DNA of 64,000 bases, from the NCBI GenBank assembly GCA_001785865.1, contig MFUZ01000006.1, forward strand, positions 176,880-240,879. Direction: 5' to 3'. The notes beneath the pieces are model-generated. The model worked only from the letters and a program-made list of their open reading frames with translations. It was not told the DNA's origin and did not search any database. A program made the translations under genes and the position numbers. The first letter of the stretch is position 1. Every line of letters starts with the position of its first letter. This document shows positions 1 to 9,837 of the stretch, in pieces. Origin of the DNA: Candidatus Nomurabacteria bacterium RIFCSPLOWO2_01_FULL_41_18. Lineage in GTDB: Bacteria; Patescibacteriota; Minisyncoccia; Phycocordibacterales; UBA9973.

Positions 1-586
1 CTTTCTTATATTCATTGATTTGTTTCTGAGCATGAGAAAAACTGCTAGTGTCTTCAATGTTGGCAAAGTGCGCATAGATCCCAGAAACTTTTATATTGTT
101 GCATTTTTTTATTTCTGAAAATAAACTCGGCAACTCACTCCATAAAAACCCTTCACGTCCAAGATACGCATCTATGGGAATATGAATCTCTTGTATTTTG
201 TTTAATTTTTTAGATACTTTATTTAATTCTTTTAATTGCCCTAATGAGAAAACAGTCAAAATGCAACCTAATTTTATTGCTCTAGATAAATCTGAATTTT
301 CCACGTATCCTAAAACCAAAGTTTTCTTTTTGCTTACTTTTTGTAAAAGTTCTAATTCTTCCACACTATTTAATTGAAAATAGTTTACATGTGGCTCCAA
401 AATTTTAGCAATTTCATTTTGCCCATGCCCGTAAGCGTTCCCCTTTATAGCCACAGAAAGTTTAGTCCCCCCGCCACGGCGGGCAGGCTTTTTTACTAAA
501 TTCCTAAACTGTTTGATGTTGCGAATCAAATTATTTTTAGAAAGTTCTATGTACGATAGAGGCAGCTTTTTTTTAATATCTTGCAT
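1..586 (-). CDS. alr: Alanine racemase, N-terminal ~195 aa (partial; continues beyond the window start)
   Basis: The reverse-strand ORF starts at ATG 586 and is not in the ORF track because it runs off the edge. Its translation MQDIKKKLPLSYIELSKNNLIRNIKQFRNLVKKPARRGGGTKLSVAIKGNAYGHG... contains the PLP-lysine motif (V/I)K(A/G)NAYGHG. It lies directly downstream of ddl. Confidence 0.7.
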   Translation of the reverse strand, partial: MQDIKKKLPLSYIELSKNNLIRNIKQFRNLVKKPARRGGGTKLSVAIKGNAYGHGQNEIAKILEPHVNYFQLNSVEELELLQKVSKKKTLVLGYVENSDLSRAIKLGCILTVFSLGQLKELNKVSKKLNKIQEIHIPIDAYLGREGFLWSELPSLFSEIKKCNNIKVSGIYAHFANIEDTSSFSHAQKQINEYKK

Positions 587-2930
587 TTTTAATAATTTTT
601 TCTAATAAATCTAATGGGAAAATTTTAGGACTTTCTGCTAGTGCTTGATGGTAAAGGACAGTCGAAGGAGTAAGAGCTGGTAGAGTATTAACCTCGATAA
701 TTATAAGAGCACCAGTTGTTGTATTCATAAAGGCGTCTATTCGTGCATATCCTTGAATTCCAATTTTGATAGCTAATTCTTCTGCTAAAACACAAGTTTT
801 GGAAACAATTTTAGGTTTTATAATTTCAATCGGTGGAGGGGTAATGTTTATACCCGTGCCACCCTGAAATTTTTCTTCTACGGAAAGTACTTCGCCTTCG
901 GCCACAGTCAAACTAGGATTAAAAGCGTGTAATTTATTATTTTCTTCTAAAATTCCAATAGTAACTTCCGCCCAGCCGTCTTTCCTTGTATATTTTAATT
1001 TATTTCCTTTGAAATGTATAATATCTGTTCTAACAAATTTCTCAAATAAAATTTCCTTTATCGCATGATTTGGCATTTCGATGATACTTTTCTGATTAGA
1101 TAAAGTCCCTGTAGGAATGAGGCTTTCATTTTTAAATAAATATTCTAAATAATTCTTTAAGTCAATTTCACTGTATAAATGAGCCACCCCAGTCGAACAT
1201 CCATCATCTTTGGGCTTTACTATCACAGTCTTTGAATCAAGTTCTGATTGGAGCAGATGCCAAAATTCTTTTATTCTGTCTATTTCTATGTCTTTCAAAA
1301 ATACAACTTTCTGTGAAGCAGTGCCTACTCCATTTATCCGTAAATTTCTTATAAATTCCCCTGTCGTAAATTTATCCATACAAAGACGGGAGGTTTTTTC
1401 ATCTGATCCGTTAAATTTTATCTCCTTATCTTGTAACGATTTTTGAAAATTACCATTCTCGCCATCCCCTCCATGTAATCCTAAAAATACAAACGGGGAC
1501 TTGTTTATAAAATCTTCAAAAGATATTTTTCTGGGCATAAAAAATGGTTCAGTTGCTTCTTCGTTTGAAATTAAAAGTTCATTTTTTACTTTTTCTATTA
1601 TATTCTCTGCATTTTTTTGGGTTACTTCAGCATTTTTAGCGTTAGTAATTATTTCTTCTACCGTATGGTTCAAGATCAGAGTGTATGGTAATTCCCACAC
1701 ATTGTTTTCAAAATCGAGCAAATACGGTTTCGGTTTATATATACTAGATTTACGCAATTTGAGCCATACATTAGTTCCACTCATGAGAGACACTTGTCTT
1801 TCCGATGTTTTTCCTCCAAAAATTACAGACACTTGTTTCTTTTCTCCTTCTTTTTGTTTTAAAGATTCTGAAAAATTTATTTTTTGTCTATTACAAGAGT
1901 TTTTAACGACATAACGTAATAAATCGCTATGACTCATGCCGATCCTTGAAGATTGTTGAAAAAGAAAACTATTTTGTTCCATACCTGACAAAGGATTAAA
2001 GTCAGAAAACCAAATTTCACCATTTTTAAGCAACCAACCATCGAAACGAGTAAAATCTTTCATGTCAAAAAGAGAAAACAGTTGCTTGGCTTGTGTTTGT
2101 ATTTTTTCAATTACTTCATTTGGGAACCTTGCTGGACAATGATATTTTACTTGGTTGGTTGGTAAATACTTTTTTCGGAAATCAAAAATCCTGCCTTCGT
2201 GATAAGCCATCTCTATTTCAGAAGGAACCAAGGCAACTGGCATACCGAGCTTGTTTTGTAATATTATGATTGTGAATTCCGTACCTTCTGCAAAAGGTTC
2301 TAGCACCACTCGAGTATCAATTCTTTTAGAGAAAAGAAGATTCACTTTTTCTACAGCTTCTTCCGGAGTATTCACAGAAAAAACTCCAATACTTGAACCA
2401 CTTGCTGCTGGTTTTACAATTGCACGTTTTACGTTATTTTTTATAAAAAACTCCTTGATTATTTTTTCGTTATCTTTAGAATATATTTTTAATAGAACAG
2501 AAGGAAGCGTAAAGAAACCTTTTTCTCGAAGAGTTTTATTTGCCTCATATTTATCGAAGGCCATTTTGCAAGCCTTACTGCTTGATCCAATAAAAGGAAT
2601 TTTATTTTTTTCTAAAAATGTTTGAATTTGTCCATCTTCACCAAATGCACCATGCATCGCAGAAAAAGTTATATCAACTGACTTTAAAAACTTCGCCAAA
2701 GATTTTTGACTTAAGGGTGAAGAATTTTTTGCTAATTTAAAATCAAAATCAGAAGGGTTATTAGAATAAAGATCAGAACAAGAAATTTTGTAAGCTCTTT
2801 TTTTTTGATCAAAATAAATTGGAACGATTTCAATATTTTCACTCGATAGATGATCGAGAACAGACCTAGCGGAATTTAATGATATTCCGCGTTCCAAAGA
2901 CGGACCGCCTGTAAGAAGTGCTATTTTCAT
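573..2930 (-). CDS. ddl: Tandem D-alanine--D-alanine ligase (two complete Ddl/ATP-grasp modules fused, 785 aa)
   Basis: The N-terminal half (MKIALLTGGPSLERGISLNSARSV...IVKPAASGSSIGV) and the C-terminal half (KQVSVIFGGKTSERQVSLMSG...IVKPKDDGCSTGVA...EVNTLPALTPSTV) each carry the Ddl signatures. Confidence 0.8.
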   Translation of the reverse strand: MKIALLTGGPSLERGISLNSARSVLDHLSSENIEIVPIYFDQKKRAYKISCSDLYSNNPSDFDFKLAKNSSPLSQKSLAKFLKSVDITFSAMHGAFGEDGQIQTFLEKNKIPFIGSSSKACKMAFDKYEANKTLREKGFFTLPSVLLKIYSKDNEKIIKEFFIKNNVKRAIVKPAASGSSIGVFSVNTPEEAVEKVNLLFSKRIDTRVVLEPFAEGTEFTIIILQNKLGMPVALVPSEIEMAYHEGRIFDFRKKYLPTNQVKYHCPARFPNEVIEKIQTQAKQLFSLFDMKDFTRFDGWLLKNGEIWFSDFNPLSGMEQNSFLFQQSSRIGMSHSDLLRYVVKNSCNRQKINFSESLKQKEGEKKQVSVIFGGKTSERQVSLMSGTNVWLKLRKSSIYKPKPYLLDFENNVWELPYTLILNHTVEEIITNAKNAEVTQKNAENIIEKVKNELLISNEEATEPFFMPRKISFEDFINKSPFVFLGLHGGDGENGNFQKSLQDKEIKFNGSDEKTSRLCMDKFTTGEFIRNLRINGVGTASQKVVFLKDIEIDRIKEFWHLLQSELDSKTVIVKPKDDGCSTGVAHLYSEIDLKNYLEYLFKNESLIPTGTLSNQKSIIEMPNHAIKEILFEKFVRTDIIHFKGNKLKYTRKDGWAEVTIGILEENNKLHAFNPSLTVAEGEVLSVEEKFQGGTGINITPPPIEIIKPKIVSKTCVLAEELAIKIGIQGYARIDAFMNTTTGALIIIEVNTLPALTPSTVLYHQALAESPKIFPLDLLEKIIKNARY

Positions 2931-5473: not shown

Positions 5474-5526
5474 AACTTGATTATATCATACTTTTTAATT
5501 TAATAAATGTGCATAAAAAGAGAAAC

Positions 5527-5570
5527 CCGCCAAACGAACGGAGGGTTTCCTGTTCGGGCGGGTCGAATGA
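5527..5570 (-). terminator. GC-rich hairpin (CCCGCC...GGCGGG family) followed by a U-run on the minus strand
   Basis: aacccgccaaacgaacggagggtttcctgttcgggcggg. The minus-sense transcript ends ...hairpin-tttctcttttt. Confidence 0.5.
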
Positions 5571-5574
5571 ATTT

Positions 5575-6090
5575 TCAACTATGTGCTTTTTTTTGAAGCC
5601 TGTCAGCCTCGAAGCAATCTACCAACTGTTCAGCGCCACAGACAAGCACTCGAGCGTTCACTTGCGCAAGTTCCTCGTAAGGCCACCAGAAGCCCAGCCC
5701 ATCCTCTGAAGGACAAAAACAAATCTTTTTTTTGTCCTTTGAAACCTTGCTTGTAAATGCGACGAATCCCATTGACCAATCTCCGTAGCGTGGTACAACG
5801 TAATCAACGCCCCCAACAATTTGCGCCACTCCTGTTTTGGTTTTTGGTTGATGAAAGCTGCACAAGAAATTTGGGAAATAGATTCGCAGATGTCTGAGTG
5901 GGTTGTCGCCAAACTCGAAACATTTGTCAATATAACCCCAGATGTCTTCGAGAACTTGGCTCAGGGTATCGTCAAATTGTTTATCAACAGGATCGAAATC
6001 CTGAAAGGGATCGCCTGAGTAGTTAAGAACCTTGTTCCTTATCGGATACAAGTAATGGTCTTTTGCTTTTTTCATTTTTGGATTCTCCAA
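5575..6090 (-). CDS. Hypothetical protein, GC-rich relative to its neighbours (likely true start MKKAKDHY at about 6075)
   Basis: ORF with no recognisable motif. Its local GC is clearly higher than the flanking genes. It is driven by a consensus TTGACT-17-TATACT promoter. Confidence 0.45.
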   Translation of the reverse strand: MENPKMKKAKDHYLYPIRNKVLNYSGDPFQDFDPVDKQFDDTLSQVLEDIWGYIDKCFEFGDNPLRHLRIYFPNFLCSFHQPKTKTGVAQIVGGVDYVVPRYGDWSMGFVAFTSKVSKDKKKICFCPSEDGLGFWWPYEELAQVNARVLVCGAEQLVDCFEADRLQKKAHS

Positions 6091-6173: not shown

Positions 6174-6202
6174 AGTATAGCATATCTACACCCAAAAGTC
6201 AA
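6174..6202 (-). promoter_or_regulatory. Sigma70 consensus promoter TTGACT-N17-TATACT (minus strand)
   Basis: rc of 6174-6202 = TTGACTtttgggtgtagatatgcTATACT. It is near-identical to the promoter at 60760-60788. Confidence 0.6.
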
Positions 6203-6224: not shown

Positions 6225-7925
6225 CTAGTAAACCTCCAACTGATAGCACTTCTCGCAATAAATTATTTTTGATTTATCTGGTGCATAACTTGTTTCAAAA
6301 GAAACCTCACACTTATTTTTATGATCATGATTTTCTTTATCACACATACAAGTTCTAGTCCAAAGTTTATTTGGCCCTCTATTTTGAAAACGTCTTATAT
6401 GCCGGCACTCTGGGCAATTTCTCGGAATCGGTATTTGCATTCTTTTATAAAAACCAAGTTCATCTTCTATAATTCTATAATTCTTTTTGCATTCTAAACA
6501 CACAAAAACTTCTTTACCCACATCAAAATCAGAAGGCAATTCTGAAATAGAATCTGGAAAAGTTTTCCAATCAACAGTTTCTTTTCCATAAGTTCCCCTC
6601 GGGGTATCTTCCCATTTGAAACCTTGCTTTAATGCTTCTTCTTTCGTAAGCGGAAATTCATCCATAACAGATGATTCATTGTAACCAAATGGAGAAAGCT
6701 CTTTTGGAAAGAAATCTCCATAAATCCCTTCTTGTGTCATTTTTGCAATTATTTCTGCGCGTAATTTTTTATATTCTTCTTTACTGTATTGTTTATTTAA
6801 AATACAATAAGAACCTTTTATTAAACCAGCGCAACCGAAACAATCTTTGGAATTTGGACAATTTGCACAATATTCCATAAACTGCGAACCCCAACACATC
6901 GATCCACAAATTACATTCGAGGCTTGTAGTCCTGTATTGTGACTATTGTAAATAAGTTCAGCAGAACGACCTGCTGTATTACAATCCACGCAATCCTTAG
7001 CTCCACGCCACACATGCACAGAATAAGCATTATCTTCTGCTTCATATGAATGAAAACAGTGATGATTGTTTTTTACATTAATCATGTAATTGCCTGTGGA
7101 ATTAACTGCGTTTGTGATTTCGGCAAATTTTCTCGGCTGATCTTTTAGGAAATTTTTATATTCTTTTCTGAAGGCTTCCACCCCAGTGTAAGTATCTAAT
7201 TTAAAAGATTTTAATTTTTTCTCATATTCTTCTTTTGAATATTGTGTATTGAAAATATTATACTTCTGTCCTCGTAAATTTATACAACCCAGACAATTCG
7301 TACAATTTCTGCAATTAAGTAAGAAAAAACTCTCTAGACAGTTGTAACACCCCTTTGAGAAGCGCAAAGAATGCGAGTCATAACAATCATCAACTTCATA
7401 AGAAAGTTCAACTTTATTGGTAAAAGAACAATCAGCTAAATCTTTTGAAAGTTGTATCCAGTGGCAATTTATGCAGTTTTCGTTATTGGAAGATTCCGTA
7501 ATTACATAACAATTTTTGTTGTCAGCTGCAAAATTAAGATAACTTGAATTTACACTTCTTTCATGAATAAGTGAAAGTTTCGGAACTTTATTCCACAACT
7601 CATTAAACTGCTCAAAAAATGTTTTTTCTGAATCATAATTTTGAGCGTATTTTTTGGCGTCCAAATCATCACTCCACCAACAGTCATGACACCAGACAGG
7701 ATAAGTTTTATTGGGGCTAAATATAGAAATGTGATCTTTTTTACAGTTATCACATTTGTGCTTATAAAAAAATCTTTCATTTTTAAAACAAAGCCGGAGT
7801 TGCATTCGGCATTCTGGACAAAGTTTGGGTGGTAACACCTCCATTTTTTCATAAAACCCAAAATCATTCGGCTCAATAGTGAAATCTTTTTTACAGTTTT
7901 GGCAAATTTTTGTTTGTTGATTCAT
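6225..7925 (-). CDS. Cysteine-rich protein with N- and C-terminal CxxC...CPECR zinc ribbons and an internally duplicated CxxC-repeat core
   Basis: N-terminal ICQNCKKDFTIEPNDFGFYEKMEVLPPKLCPECR matches C-terminal VCLECKKNYRIIEDELGFYKRMQIPIPRNCPECR. The core has many [DNG]CxxC units, and its two halves both end in N.QYSKEEY.KKL. Confidence 0.6.
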   Translation of the reverse strand: MNQQTKICQNCKKDFTIEPNDFGFYEKMEVLPPKLCPECRMQLRLCFKNERFFYKHKCDNCKKDHISIFSPNKTYPVWCHDCWWSDDLDAKKYAQNYDSEKTFFEQFNELWNKVPKLSLIHERSVNSSYLNFAADNKNCYVITESSNNENCINCHWIQLSKDLADCSFTNKVELSYEVDDCYDSHSLRFSKGCYNCLESFFLLNCRNCTNCLGCINLRGQKYNIFNTQYSKEEYEKKLKSFKLDTYTGVEAFRKEYKNFLKDQPRKFAEITNAVNSTGNYMINVKNNHHCFHSYEAEDNAYSVHVWRGAKDCVDCNTAGRSAELIYNSHNTGLQASNVICGSMCWGSQFMEYCANCPNSKDCFGCAGLIKGSYCILNKQYSKEEYKKLRAEIIAKMTQEGIYGDFFPKELSPFGYNESSVMDEFPLTKEEALKQGFKWEDTPRGTYGKETVDWKTFPDSISELPSDFDVGKEVFVCLECKKNYRIIEDELGFYKRMQIPIPRNCPECRHIRRFQNRGPNKLWTRTCMCDKENHDHKNKCEVSFETSYAPDKSKIIYCEKCYQLEVY

Positions 7926-7931
7926 AAAACA

Positions 7932-8660
7932 TTATATTTTCTCCGGTATTACCAAAGCCACAGATTCCATCAAGGTCTTAGAGGAACTTCCGGGCATACG
8001 CAAGAATTCACGGACTTTAAAAATGTGCTCAAAAAATCTAGTATCAAAGGGCATCTTTGACATGAACTTATTATGCAAAATAAGTTCTAGCGCATTTAGA
8101 AATTTCAAAGCTTTTGAGCGAGTGGAATCTAAGGCAATAATTTCATTTCCCTCTTCGTCCTCTTCTTCTGATTCAGCTAATAATTCTTTTATAAAATCAA
8201 TTCTTTTTTGCAAAGGCATATTTATAAACTTCTCTACTTCTTTTGTGTCTTCTCCTAATTCCGTAAGGCCTTGCCTTGGGGAGATTACATAAAATCTAGA
8301 AACTAAAGTTTTTAGAAGAGAATTTGTATCTGGCACGACCAGAAAGAAATGTGTATTTTCTATAGGCTCTTCAAACATTTTTAGCAAGACATTCTGCGCA
8401 TCTAAAGAAAAACTATTAACACAAACAACGAAAATTTTTTTAGTAGAAGAGAAACCTTTGTTCGTTGACATCGCACGCAAATCAAACGCCTCATCTATTT
8501 TTAGGTTATCAATTGTGATGTGACAAAAATCAGGATTACCCGAAGTTTTAATACCTAAATCTTCACAAAATCGTAAAATCTCCGGCACAATTTTCTCTCG
8601 TCCTCCTTCTATTAAGTAAGCATGGTGTAAATTATTTTTATCTAAGTGTTTTGAAATCAT
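7932..8660 (-). CDS. holB: DNA polymerase III delta-prime subunit-like (clamp-loader AAA+ fold, no Walker A)
   Basis: HAYLIEG, NVLLKMFEEP (the NALLKTLEEP box) and a SRF-type sensor motif. Confidence 0.65.
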   Translation of the reverse strand: MISKHLDKNNLHHAYLIEGGREKIVPEILRFCEDLGIKTSGNPDFCHITIDNLKIDEAFDLRAMSTNKGFSSTKKIFVVCVNSFSLDAQNVLLKMFEEPIENTHFFLVVPDTNSLLKTLVSRFYVISPRQGLTELGEDTKEVEKFINMPLQKRIDFIKELLAESEEEDEEGNEIIALDSTRSKALKFLNALELILHNKFMSKMPFDTRFFEHIFKVREFLRMPGSSSKTLMESVALVIPEKI

Positions 8661-8823: not shown

Positions 8824-9837
8824 CTATTTTTTACTTAAAACTGTTTTCTTATATACATCCAAATGCTCCAATGCTATGCCTGTGCCCTTTACCACACAAA
8901 AAAGAGGATCTTCGGCTAAGGCCGCCTTTACCCCAGTTTTCCTGTAAACCAAATCAGTAAAATTGCGCAATTGAGACGAACCTCCGGTCATAATGATTCC
9001 TTGATCTATGATGTCGGAAGCAAGCTCGGGTGGAGTTTCTTGCAGTACATCTTTGATAGCTTGTATTATTTGTTTTAATTCTCCGTCTATGGCTTTAACT
9101 ATCTCATTTGTACCTACTCGCGCAGAACGAGGCAATCCCTGAATATAATCTCTACCCTTGATAGTAACATTAAGTTCTTCTTCCAAAAGTACAGCCGCAC
9201 CGATTTTTATTTTTACTTCTTCCGCTGTCCTGTCACCTATTGCTAGATTGAAGGTTTTTTTAATATAATCTGCTATTGCTTGATCTATTTTATTTCCGGC
9301 ACATTTAACTGATTTGGAAGAAACTATTCCGCCGAGCGATATAACTGCCACATCCGTCGTTCCTCCACCTATGTCCACTACCATATGCCCTCTAGACTCG
9401 TAAATCGGTATCCCAGCGCCAATAGCAGCCAAAATGGGTTCTTTGACGACATATGCATTCTTTGCACCTGCACGTATTGCGGCCTCTATTACAGCTCTGC
9501 GTTCTGTGCTGGTGACTCCGGCAGGTACTGAAACCATCACATCTGGTTTAAAGAAATTGAATCGCCCCATCGCTTTATTTATAAAATAACGAAGCATGGC
9601 TTCTGTCACACGATAGTCAGCAATCACACCGTCTTTCATCGGACAATAAGTAATGATGGATTCAGGGGTTTTGCCGATCATATCCTTGGCTTCGAAACCG
9701 ATAGCTAGAATCTTGTTGTCTTGCTCAGAAACTGCTACCACCGAAGGCTCGTTTAAGATTATCCCCTTGCCAGGCAAAAATACCAAGGTATTCGCTGTTC
9801 CTAAATCTATGCCTAATTTTTTCGTAAAAATACCCAT
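8824..9837 (-). CDS. mreB: Rod shape-determining protein MreB
   Basis: Actin-fold motifs GIDLGTANT and DIGGGTTD. Confidence 0.9.
   Translation of the reverse strand: MGIFTKKLGIDLGTANTLVFLPGKGIILNEPSVVAVSEQDNKILAIGFEAKDMIGKTPESIITYCPMKDGVIADYRVTEAMLRYFINKAMGRFNFFKPDVMVSVPAGVTSTERRAVIEAAIRAGAKNAYVVKEPILAAIGAGIPIYESRGHMVVDIGGGTTDVAVISLGGIVSSKSVKCAGNKIDQAIADYIKKTFNLAIGDRTAEEVKIKIGAAVLLEEELNVTIKGRDYIQGLPRSARVGTNEIVKAIDGELKQIIQAIKDVLQETPPELASDIIDQGIIMTGGSSQLRNFTDLVYRKTGVKAALAEDPLFCVVKGTGIALEHLDVYKKTVLSKK

Follow-up and report, generated by a model that had tools for sequence, protein, structure and literature searches.

The closest described relatives of the protein treated here are two zinc-finger families, PF13451 (zf_Tbcl) and PF23477 (zf_Tbcl_2, of the CxxC-x17-CxxC type also modeled by TIGR04272), and both Pfam families are themselves uncharacterized. 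For the fold predicted at its center, the points of reference are left-handed β-helix proteins (LpxA, LpxD, GlmU, and γ-carbonic anhydrases) and the insect antifreeze protein TmAFP, a Cys-rich β-helix of 12-residue repeats that is small, secreted, and disulfide bonded and has a TCT ice-binding face. For its genomic company, they are the type IV coupling proteins VirD4 and TrwB and their adaptors. A survey of the Candidate Phyla Radiation (CPR) counted 5,713 VirD4 homologues in 2,918 CPR genomes, with 148 located near virB4, and its authors suggested that the CPR homologues were perhaps co-opted for another role (10.1101/2025.01.22.634366). The gene analyzed here lies at 6225..7925 on the minus strand of a 64,000-nucleotide stretch of Candidatus Nomurabacteria bacterium RIFCSPLOWO2_01_FULL_41_18 (contig MFUZ01000006.1, positions 176,880 to 240,879), referred to below as the window. 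Its product belongs to a very large, undescribed protein family of Patescibacteria, members of which recurrently neighbor VirD4-like ATPases. We propose, with a probability of about 0.35, that the protein is a zinc-finger scaffold or adaptor working with such ATPases in the handling of DNA or protein.

According to the list of open reading frames (ORFs) and its translation, the coding sequence is complete, running from ATG to stop (566 codons plus the stop codon). The product, of ∼65 kDa, is a 100% match to the deposited protein OGI68495.1 (UniProt A0A1F6VFY6) from Candidatus Nomurabacteria bacterium RIFCSPHIGHO2_01_FULL_42_1x, which is annotated merely as "hypothetical" or as a "zinc-binding domain-containing protein." Its N terminus lines up with those of orthologues from residue 1, and the ORF is a real gene. 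The original prediction, made from the letters of the window alone, had singled out an unusual Cys-rich protein, and the composition agrees: 39 of the 566 residues are cysteine (6.9%), compared with a mean of 0.63% (standard deviation, 0.64) in 38 further long ORFs from the window, an enrichment far above chance. The estimate of about 60 cysteines that accompanied that description was too high by half. CxxC motifs number 14 across the whole protein. A Kyte-Doolittle search for a signal peptide or hydrophobic N terminus found none, and no segment of the protein is hydrophobic (maximum 19-residue mean, 0.78). Because of this and of a near-neutral isoelectric point (pI) of 6.9, we assign the protein to the soluble, cytoplasmic fraction with moderate confidence.

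The domain order is palindromic (finger pair, linker, repeat domain B1, repeat domain B2, linker domain, finger pair), not a simple tandem duplication. All features below are encoded on the minus strand. At the N terminus, Zn1 (residues 5 to 45; 7791..7913) is a treble clef of the PF13451 type with putative ligands C8, C11, C36, and C39, a helix (FGFYEKM) between its two knuckles, and an Arg-rich helix after the second. Zn2 (residues 52 to 84; 7674..7772) is of the PF23477/TIGR04272 type, and its putative ligands (C58-x2-C61-x17-C79-x2-C82) have the exact TIGR04272 spacing. The N-terminal linker that follows (residues 85 to 121; 7563..7673) keeps D86, W88, F103, Q106, L110, and P115 family-wide and was modeled by AlphaFold2 (AF2) with a predicted local distance difference test score (pLDDT) of 88 to 95. 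On the C-terminal side, a conserved linker domain (residues 400 to 470; 6516..6728; pLDDT, 94 to 96) carries the motifs FFP..LSPFGYNE[ST] and GF.WED..RGTY, with G403, P407, S411, Y415, N416, E417, G435, and W438 invariant or nearly so in alignments A2 to A4. It leads into Zn3 (residues 471 to 520; 6366..6515; putative ligands C476, C479, C504, and C507), a paralogue of Zn1, and Zn4 (residues 521 to 566; 6228..6365; putative ligands C526, C539, C557, and C560), a paralogue of Zn2. The C terminus is a folded, conserved zinc finger (pLDDT, 75 to 91) ending in YCEKCYQLEVY. Seven CxxC motifs fall inside the terminal modules; the C526...C539 site contains an inserted loop and hence lacks this spacing. 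Basic residues line one face of the Arg-rich helix after each second CxxC knuckle of Zn1 and Zn3 (R40/R44/R48 and R508/R512/R516; R508 and R512 are invariant), and Zn3-Zn4 is the sole basic part of the protein (pI, 8.7).

The two ends are clearly related. Residues 1 to 100 align with residues 460 to 566 by BLASTP (E = 6e-15), the homology extends over ∼82 to 93 residues, and hhalign gives a probability of 99.4% (E = 5.9e-22) with the register C58 = C526, C61 = C539, C79 = C557, and C82 = C560 and a 10-residue insertion in the C-terminal copy. The terminal peptides quoted in the original prediction (C8 to R40 and C476 to R508) are thus present and paralogous, and its reading of them as zinc modules stands; each end, however, is a pair of sites, PF13451-like and then PF23477-like, not a single zinc ribbon.

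Conservation was assessed in three alignments, of 43 orthologues (A1), of 138 representatives of 50%-identity clusters (A2), and of 143 mixed sequences (A3). Family-wide, the four cysteines of Zn1 are 97 to 100% conserved and those of Zn4 99 to 100%. The Zn2 set is invariant within the orthogroup of the window's protein, and 40 to 45% of paralogues drop three of its ligands together. Zn3 retains all four cysteines in 104/138 sequences, the remainder mostly losing three ligands together and a few losing one. Because these cysteines are either invariant or lost as sets, we regard the four terminal Cys4 sets, with moderate confidence, as sites of structural zinc. The inserted Zn4 loop, C528-x4-H533-x-H535, also behaves in an all-or-none manner ("CHH" or "---") and is a possible fifth zinc site, so that the terminal modules would hold four or five zinc ions. 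H509 was considered as a fourth ligand of this loop and rejected, as it does not covary with it.

Profile scores place the fingers near the edge of the described families. At a gathering score of 24 bits, PF13451 gave no reported match to the window's protein. At residues equivalent to 2 to 45, it exceeds the cutoff in the orthologues P0095 (26.9 bits) and P0098 (28.4 bits), and it also does so in the paralogues P0274, P0333, and P0360 (24.8 to 31.5 bits). Residues 52 to 83 score 21.6 bits against PF23477 (cutoff, 27) and 17.3 bits against TIGR04272 (cutoff, 36), below both; the orthologue P0011 reaches 26.5 bits against PF23477. Among 74 diverse family members scanned against Pfam (E ≤ 0.1), PF13451 was found in 33 and PF23477 in 28, and no other family recurs. 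Foldseek superposes zinc-ribbon proteins of the BFVD collection at 0.6 to 0.7 Å over 41 to 43 columns, the zinc module involved not being reported. The protein therefore resembles PF13451 and PF23477 in its four terminal sites, in the above-cutoff scores of several family members, and in sharing the PF23477 finger with the C terminus of neighboring VirD4-like ATPases. It differs in that the two Pfam families cover only ∼150/566 residues, in that the window's protein is below both cutoffs, and in a palindromic layout around two solenoids that lies outside either family definition. LIM domains likewise consist of two consecutive zinc sites, and the C-terminal module aligns weakly to CRP1 (E = 0.048, below significance), with PF00412 (LIM) touched by 4/74 members. 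In contrast to the C2HC-plus-C4 arrangement of LIM, however, the modules here combine two Cys4 sites separated by a long helix, and the ligand spacing differs as well.

The core comprises two Cys/Asn-rich repeat domains. B1 (residues 122 to 242; 7200..7562) closes with the capping helix YSKEEYEKKLKSF, and its homologue B2 (residues 270 to 399; 6729..7118) closes with LNKQYSKEEYKKLRAEIIAKM. Between them lies a helical region (residues 243 to 269; 7119..7199; AF2 helix at 246 to 260) that is the most variable part of the protein among paralogues. B1 and B2 are 32% identical by BLASTP (E = 3e-14) and align by hhalign with a probability of 99.9% (E = 5.5e-36); hhalign cross-comparisons between zinc modules and core halves returned nothing. 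Both halves end in N-x-QYSKEEY (FNTQYSKEEYEKK at residues 225 to 237 and LNKQYSKEEYKK at residues 376 to 387), a motif also visible as a 45-nucleotide DNA repeat with 78% identity, 453 nucleotides apart; N377, K378, and Y380 of the B2 copy are nearly invariant family-wide. The duplication and the shared ending had both been recognized in the original prediction.

With the 43 close orthologues as input, AF2 gave a pLDDT of 67.9. Addition of 120 paralogues from the profile search raised this value to 87.1, and the resulting model (predicted template modeling score, 0.87) suggests a single compact body. In the core, and notably across residues 191 to 221 of B1, the model places single β-bridges at every third residue; in B2, pLDDT is 71 to 80 in the repeat and 93 to 96 in the helix. 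The sequence itself has a periodicity of 3 residues, with autocorrelation peaks at 12, 24, and 36. From these observations we infer, with moderate confidence, that the core forms a narrow, tightly wound β-solenoid. As proposed in the original prediction, the model was compared by Foldseek with the PDB, and nothing significant was retrieved: the best 50 of 241 matches were all proteins with left-handed β-helix domains, at E = 0.012 at best, with TM-scores of ≤0.2 and root-mean-square deviations (RMSD) of ∼10 Å or more, and none at E ≤ 0.001. With respect to TmAFP, the predicted core would be alike in being a narrow solenoid of ∼12-residue repeats with cysteines facing a thin interior. It is unlike TmAFP in having neither a signal peptide nor a TCT motif and in cysteines that are interchangeable with hydrophobic residues.

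No significant match to the core was found in Pfam, NCBIfam, PHROGs, PADLOC, PDB sequences, or, by Foldseek, the PDB and BFVD. None of the 74 diverse members has a Pfam match there, a B1/B2 repeat-domain profile retrieved no PDB sequence even at E ≤ 10, and a full-length profile retrieved only LIM matches below threshold from PDB sequences. Because the core has no detectable relatives, the protein can be filed under no characterized family, in line with the original prediction; no confident profile match to such a family came to light.

Of the 39 cysteines, 21 belong to the core, where the original prediction had envisaged more than a dozen CxxC metal knuckles. The core contains eight CxxC motifs (five in the first half and three in the second), and a metal-binding role finds little favor in their conservation. 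Across 138 to 143 diverse members, core cysteines are 5 to 97% conserved and are substituted individually by Ser, Val, Leu, Ile, Ala, or Phe (e.g., C362 by Leu, C340 by Phe, and C205 by Leu). As single replacement by hydrophobic residues or Ser is the rule, the core cysteines are best interpreted as buried packing residues of the repeat fold and not as metal ligands. The run C205-x2-C208-x2-C211-x2-C214, which is 95 to 100% conserved within the orthogroup, was considered as a metal site and rejected because its four positions vary independently; the commonest patterns family-wide are CCCC (n = 73), CCCS (n = 20), LCCC (n = 14), and CVSC (n = 6). A caution for the reading of Cys-rich sequences follows, in that most CxxC motifs here would be packing elements and not metal sites.

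The family to which the protein belongs is extensive. A word-indexed search returned at least 7,858 matches among 8,000 scored candidates, of which the best 120 are full-length at 57 to 79% identity. An exhaustive profile search across 1.84 billion cluster representatives retrieved 4,736 at E ≤ 1e-3, a number that falls to 1,949 at E ≤ 1e-30; those in the top 150 have 33 to 45% identity, and nearly all are full-length (511 to 602 residues, with one of 416). The family thus amounts to ∼1,950 clusters at 50% identity and >7,800 at 90%. Named sources are almost all Patescibacteria (Nomura-, Jorgensen-, Lipton-, Staskawicz-, and Brennerbacteria, Paceibacterota, and Minisyncoccia). The exceptions among source labels are one metagenome-assembled genome (MAG) labeled "Burkholderiales" and many entries with the generic title "uncultured Candidatus Saccharibacteria," which may be a placeholder name for assembled MAGs. 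In the "Burkholderiales" MAG (locus L017; JAMPXW010000001.1), the family occupies the same rluD...rplS setting as in other family loci, and the label is for this reason probably wrong. Searches of phage, plasmid, and IMG/VR collections by tblastn returned no matches, nor did PADLOC or PHROGs. Database names for its members go no further than "hypothetical" or "zinc-binding domain-containing." In the literature searched there was no published description of the family, the sole relevant paper being the CPR survey of type IV secretion cited above.

Related loci, fetched with the orthologue alignment and numbered with the prefix L, revealed that family genes commonly occur in arrays. Two to eight co-directional copies lie within ±6 kb in 60/82 loci, and neighbors often overlap by a few bases. 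L039 and L078 hold eight copies each and L029, L040, L077, and L003/L038 seven each, with arrays that fill the whole 13.7-kb locus; on one 672-kb contig, at least seven copies in two loci take up ∼12 kb, or 1.8%. The L003/L038 array reaches eight when a partial copy is added to the seven called genes, and two DUF3800 genes without a PADLOC match are interleaved with it (1645-2295 and 7745-8377). One of the copies on the 672-kb contig, in L163 (8874-12957), sits between ftsW and murG, inside an otherwise conserved mraY-ftsW-murG cell-wall cluster.

Pairwise identities within the family are bimodal, at 50 to 80% within one orthogroup, designated A, and 30 to 45% between paralogues. The protein of the window is of this A-type, the best conserved orthogroup of the family, which evolves slowly and never exceeds one copy per locus; other types recur within one locus. 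Among paralogues, column entropy is 1.8 to 2.1 bits in the zinc modules and linkers and 2.3 to 2.7 bits in B1, the inter-domain helices, and B2, with 2.74 bits in the inter-domain helical region. Among orthologues, B1 and Zn2 have the lowest entropy (0.9 bits). This pattern fits a shared chassis that bears paralogue-specific surfaces. The libraries and papers searched contain no description of the domain family (the core and the linker domain, with its FFP..LSPFGYNE[ST] and GF.WED..RGTY motifs, have no detectable relatives in the databases searched), the palindromic architecture, the expansion in minimal genomes, or the association with ATPases. The fold classes from which the protein is built, zinc fingers and a solenoid, are familiar ones.

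That association rests on a single recurrent non-housekeeping neighbor. A VirD4/TrwB-like ATPase with TrwB_AAD_bind/TraG-D_C domains lies within 6 kb in 26/81 family loci; it typically stands next to the family and in the same orientation, and the arrangements number four or more. Two types can be told apart. The type I ATPase (∼485 residues) has no zinc finger; in L032, L036, L061, L067, and L073, genes for predicted membrane proteins of 475 and 171 residues lie upstream of it, and cutA often follows. The type II ATPase (600 to 1,000 residues) lacks an N-terminal membrane anchor and has a long low-complexity tail and a C-terminal PF23477 finger (CSxCGKxTxVPFEPxPGRPxYCxDC; E = 1.2e-14). It is followed by trmD or by a gene for a protein with lamin-tail and PKD domains, and it scores against HerA models as well as against mad8 of PADLOC (E = 2e-13). 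Types I and II bracket the array in L001 (2212-4353 and 10121-11569), L026, L065, and L079, and they bracket a single family copy in L164, where dnaJ follows type I. By chance, an ATPase would be expected within a 12-kb span in an estimated few percent of loci (∼two genes per <1-Mb genome); as 32% was observed, the adjacency is enriched.

Several further observations concern the genes around these ATPases. A single phage family of 824 positions, phrog_5156, is matched by the 475-residue membrane protein and the ATPase jointly, so that the two look like one protein split in two. The lamin-tail/PKD protein that follows type II in L043, L044, L050, L065, and L066 has ∼490 residues, is hydrophobic at both ends, and is probably a surface protein. 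In two unrelated loci, dnaK/dnaJ genes (the dnaJ product having its own CXXCXGXG zinc finger) adjoin the ATPase and family cluster (L001, 1-1838 and 11607-12680; L164, 8881-9999). A gene for CutA1, a divalent-ion tolerance protein (PF03091; E = 3e-30), lies within or at the edge of the array in L032, L036, L039, L056, L061, and L079, in most cases with the type I ATPase on one side and the first family copy on the other.

As a reciprocal test, 80 metagenome loci centered on type II ATPases were inspected. The family was present in 11 of them. Of the 24 loci whose flanks reached 3 kb or more in each direction, 6 contained the family; it occurs mainly beside the closest type II homologues (58 to 78% identity in the best aligned segment). 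No relaxase or VirB4 gene was noted in the few loci for which gene and Pfam tables were at hand, no systematic search of the loci having been made. As with the adaptors of type IV coupling proteins, the family is recurrently adjacent to a VirD4-like ATPase on the same strand, and it shares a finger domain with it. Unlike in those systems, the ATPases in CPR genomes mostly lack type IV secretion system (T4SS) genes, the linkage is partial, and no substrate signal is known in the family.

The adaptor proposal is made because the family stands recurrently beside ATPases, one type of which has the same PF23477 finger. The finger pairs and the conserved linker would constitute a common chassis that docks either onto nucleic acid or onto a partner with the same finger, namely, the ATPase; the Arg-rich helices after the second knuckles would suit such docking. 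Since the surfaces of the solenoids and helices vary from paralogue to paralogue and are highly conserved within orthogroups, they may give each paralogue its own client specificity. The paralogues would then be adaptors or substrate-recognition scaffolds for VirD4-like ATPases, and the gene in the window would be an isolated copy that is expressed together with mreB and holB.

Several points weigh against this proposal. The proposed function stems from sequence comparison and context, and the searches recovered no characterized homologue. The loci are not phylogenetically independent, and inherited synteny among related loci inflates the linkage counts. An ATPase is missing within 6 kb from 55/81 family loci and from the entire 64-kb window, and distant type II homologues (50 to 56% identity) lie in a different conserved operon that lacks the family. 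The varied housekeeping contexts of A-type genes (mreB-holB, scpAB, rluD...rplS, argS, and ppsA) would fit an ATPase-independent function equally well. Finally, the protein is near neutral, with only Zn3-Zn4 basic, so that nucleic-acid binding is not obvious from its charge.

A more far-reaching version of the adaptor proposal, which we put forward tentatively and consider unlikely, holds that the family and the secretion-unlinked VirD4-like ATPases form an unrecognized, Patescibacteria-specific machine. Its parts would be a type I ATPase with two upstream membrane-protein genes, a type II ATPase with its zinc finger, and the arrayed paralogues. The latter would act as interchangeable adaptors whose solenoid faces select nucleic-acid or protein clients for translocation or remodeling.

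The alternative that survives best, possible though doubtful, is a housekeeping RNA- or DNA-binding factor that is independent of the ATPases, in which the four fingers and the Arg helices would contact the nucleic acid, with the solenoids as a rigid spacer. Zinc ribbons and treble clefs often bind nucleic acids, and the basic residues that line one face of the helices after Zn1 and Zn3 are invariant. A-type proteins, moreover, retain 57 to 79% identity across named candidate lineages and are often encoded by a single copy (X) in housekeeping operons (mreB-holB-X-frr, scpA-scpB-X-mraY, rluD-X-rplS, argS-X, and X-tgt). The neighborhood is nevertheless weak evidence, because translation and replication genes fill much of these tiny genomes, and the overall charge is neutral. 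Such a factor would also leave unexplained both the upkeep of up to eight divergent paralogues and the recurrent adjacency to ATPases.

Export is a second alternative, in which the proteins would be cargo or effectors delivered to the host cell by a type IV-like route via the VirD4-like coupling proteins. Diverged tandem paralogues beside coupling-protein homologues do resemble T4SS-dependent effector or pilin arrays elsewhere, and comparable VirB2 arrays have been reported in CPR bacteria (10.1101/2025.01.22.634366). We nonetheless judge export improbable. A basic, disordered C-terminal export signal is lacking; the C terminus is instead an invariant folded finger with a conserved EVY end, and A-type genes are under strong purifying selection, unlike typical effectors. 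Tightly folded multi-zinc proteins are also poor substrates for an unfolding translocon. In addition, the survey places these coupling-protein genes mostly far from virB4 (10.1101/2025.01.22.634366).

A structural role receives no more credence from us than export does. The solenoid-like core might be taken for a bactofilin-like polymer or cytoskeletal element whose domains stack end to end, with co-transcribed paralogues assembling into heteropolymers, and mreB, mreC, and mreD are neighbors in the window and in L002, L010 to L012, L015, and L028. Yet mreB is a neighbor only in a few lineages that are related to one another (∼7/81 loci), no member matches bactofilin or another solenoid family in Pfam, and the helices after both solenoids, together with the flanking zinc modules and linkers, should block stacking.

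A role in conflict or defense, with variable solenoid surfaces that sense invaders and signal to the neighboring ATPase, also appears improbable. It would account for the concentration of paralogue diversification on solenoid surfaces, for the mad8 and HerA matches of the type II ATPase, and for the DUF3800 genes interleaved with the L003/L038 array. Against it stand the failure to match PADLOC or PHROGs, the absence from phage, plasmid, and IMG/VR collections, the high conservation of the A-type, and the location of arrays at conserved housekeeping positions instead of variable islands.

It is very unlikely that the core is a metal cluster or redox center, such as an Fe-S protein or a metallothionein-like buffer. 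The 21 core cysteines, with the C205-C214 run so well kept in the A orthogroup, and the CutA1 genes adjacent in several loci speak for it; every core cysteine, however, is individually replaceable family-wide with no all-or-none pattern, and Pfam and NCBIfam contain no metal-cluster family that matches. Last, a divergent left-handed β-helix enzyme (a hexapeptide acyltransferase or γ-carbonic anhydrase) is barely credible: short regular strands, a capping helix after the solenoid, and weak Foldseek matches to γ-carbonic anhydrases, LpxD, LpxA, GlmU, and eIF2B among the best 50 of 241 recall this class, but the matches are not significant, Hexapep is found in 0/74 members, the periodicity is 3 and 12 instead of 6 and 18, no trimer-interface features were found, and the listed conserved core positions include no histidine triad or obvious catalytic residue.

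In the window, the gene order, entirely on the minus strand, is mreB, the holB-like gene, the family gene, a 171-residue ORF, frr, rseP, map, and ddl. The holB neighbor named in the original prediction is confirmed by a Pfam match (7932-8660; PF13177; E = 9e-17), and its stop codon lies 6 nucleotides before the ATG of the family gene. Upstream of it is mreB (8824-9837; PF06723; E = 5e-133), preceded by a promoter-like site on the same strand (9872-9844). These upstream genes are co-directional, and the three probably share one transcript. The order mreB-holB-family gene is repeated in L010, L011, L012, and L015. Elsewhere, examination of the distribution and neighborhood of the family, which the original prediction had also proposed, located A-type genes in varied housekeeping contexts (scpA-scpB-X-mraY-ftsW-murG, rluD-[array]-rplS, argS-X, mreBCD-X-tgt, and ppsA). 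The window contains neither a second family member nor an ATPase partner.

The ORF downstream (5575-6090; minus strand; TTG start; 171 residues; 3.5% Cys) had been described as a GC-rich orphan. At 43.8% GC, in a window of 40%, it is GC rich only beside the family gene (32.9%). The family gene and the holB-like gene (33.6%), with 25 to 30% GC at third codon positions, are distinctly AT rich compared with their neighbors (39 to 44% GC) and with the window. Neither Pfam nor PHROGs has a match to the ORF, and none of the other fetched loci contains a relative. Because the close relatives L010 and L012 lack a gene at this position, it looks like a lineage-specific insertion or may be no gene at all. 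Its flanks (5526-5542 and 6174-6202) contain a terminator-like hairpin and a strong promoter-like sequence, TTGACT-17-TATACT, preceded by TG. Rfam and ARAGORN searches for an RNA gene in the gap downstream of the family gene found four distant tRNAs and nothing else. At 573-2930 (minus strand), an ORF of 785 residues contains the N- and C-terminal domains of D-Ala-D-Ala ligase twice over; at about double the normal length of Ddl, it resembles two tandem copies fused into one.

Patescibacteria have genomes of ∼0.5 to 1 Mb, for which up to eight or more paralogues of 1.7 kb each are a large investment. A cost of this size implies an important function specific to Patescibacteria. If the predicted fold is correct, the core repeat would be a new class of cysteine-packed cytoplasmic β-solenoid. 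The presence of the family beside unexplained CPR ATPases that are not attached to a T4SS supplies a concrete, testable partner hypothesis, and should the two indeed form a machine, it could bear on how minimal, host-dependent cells acquire or exchange macromolecules.

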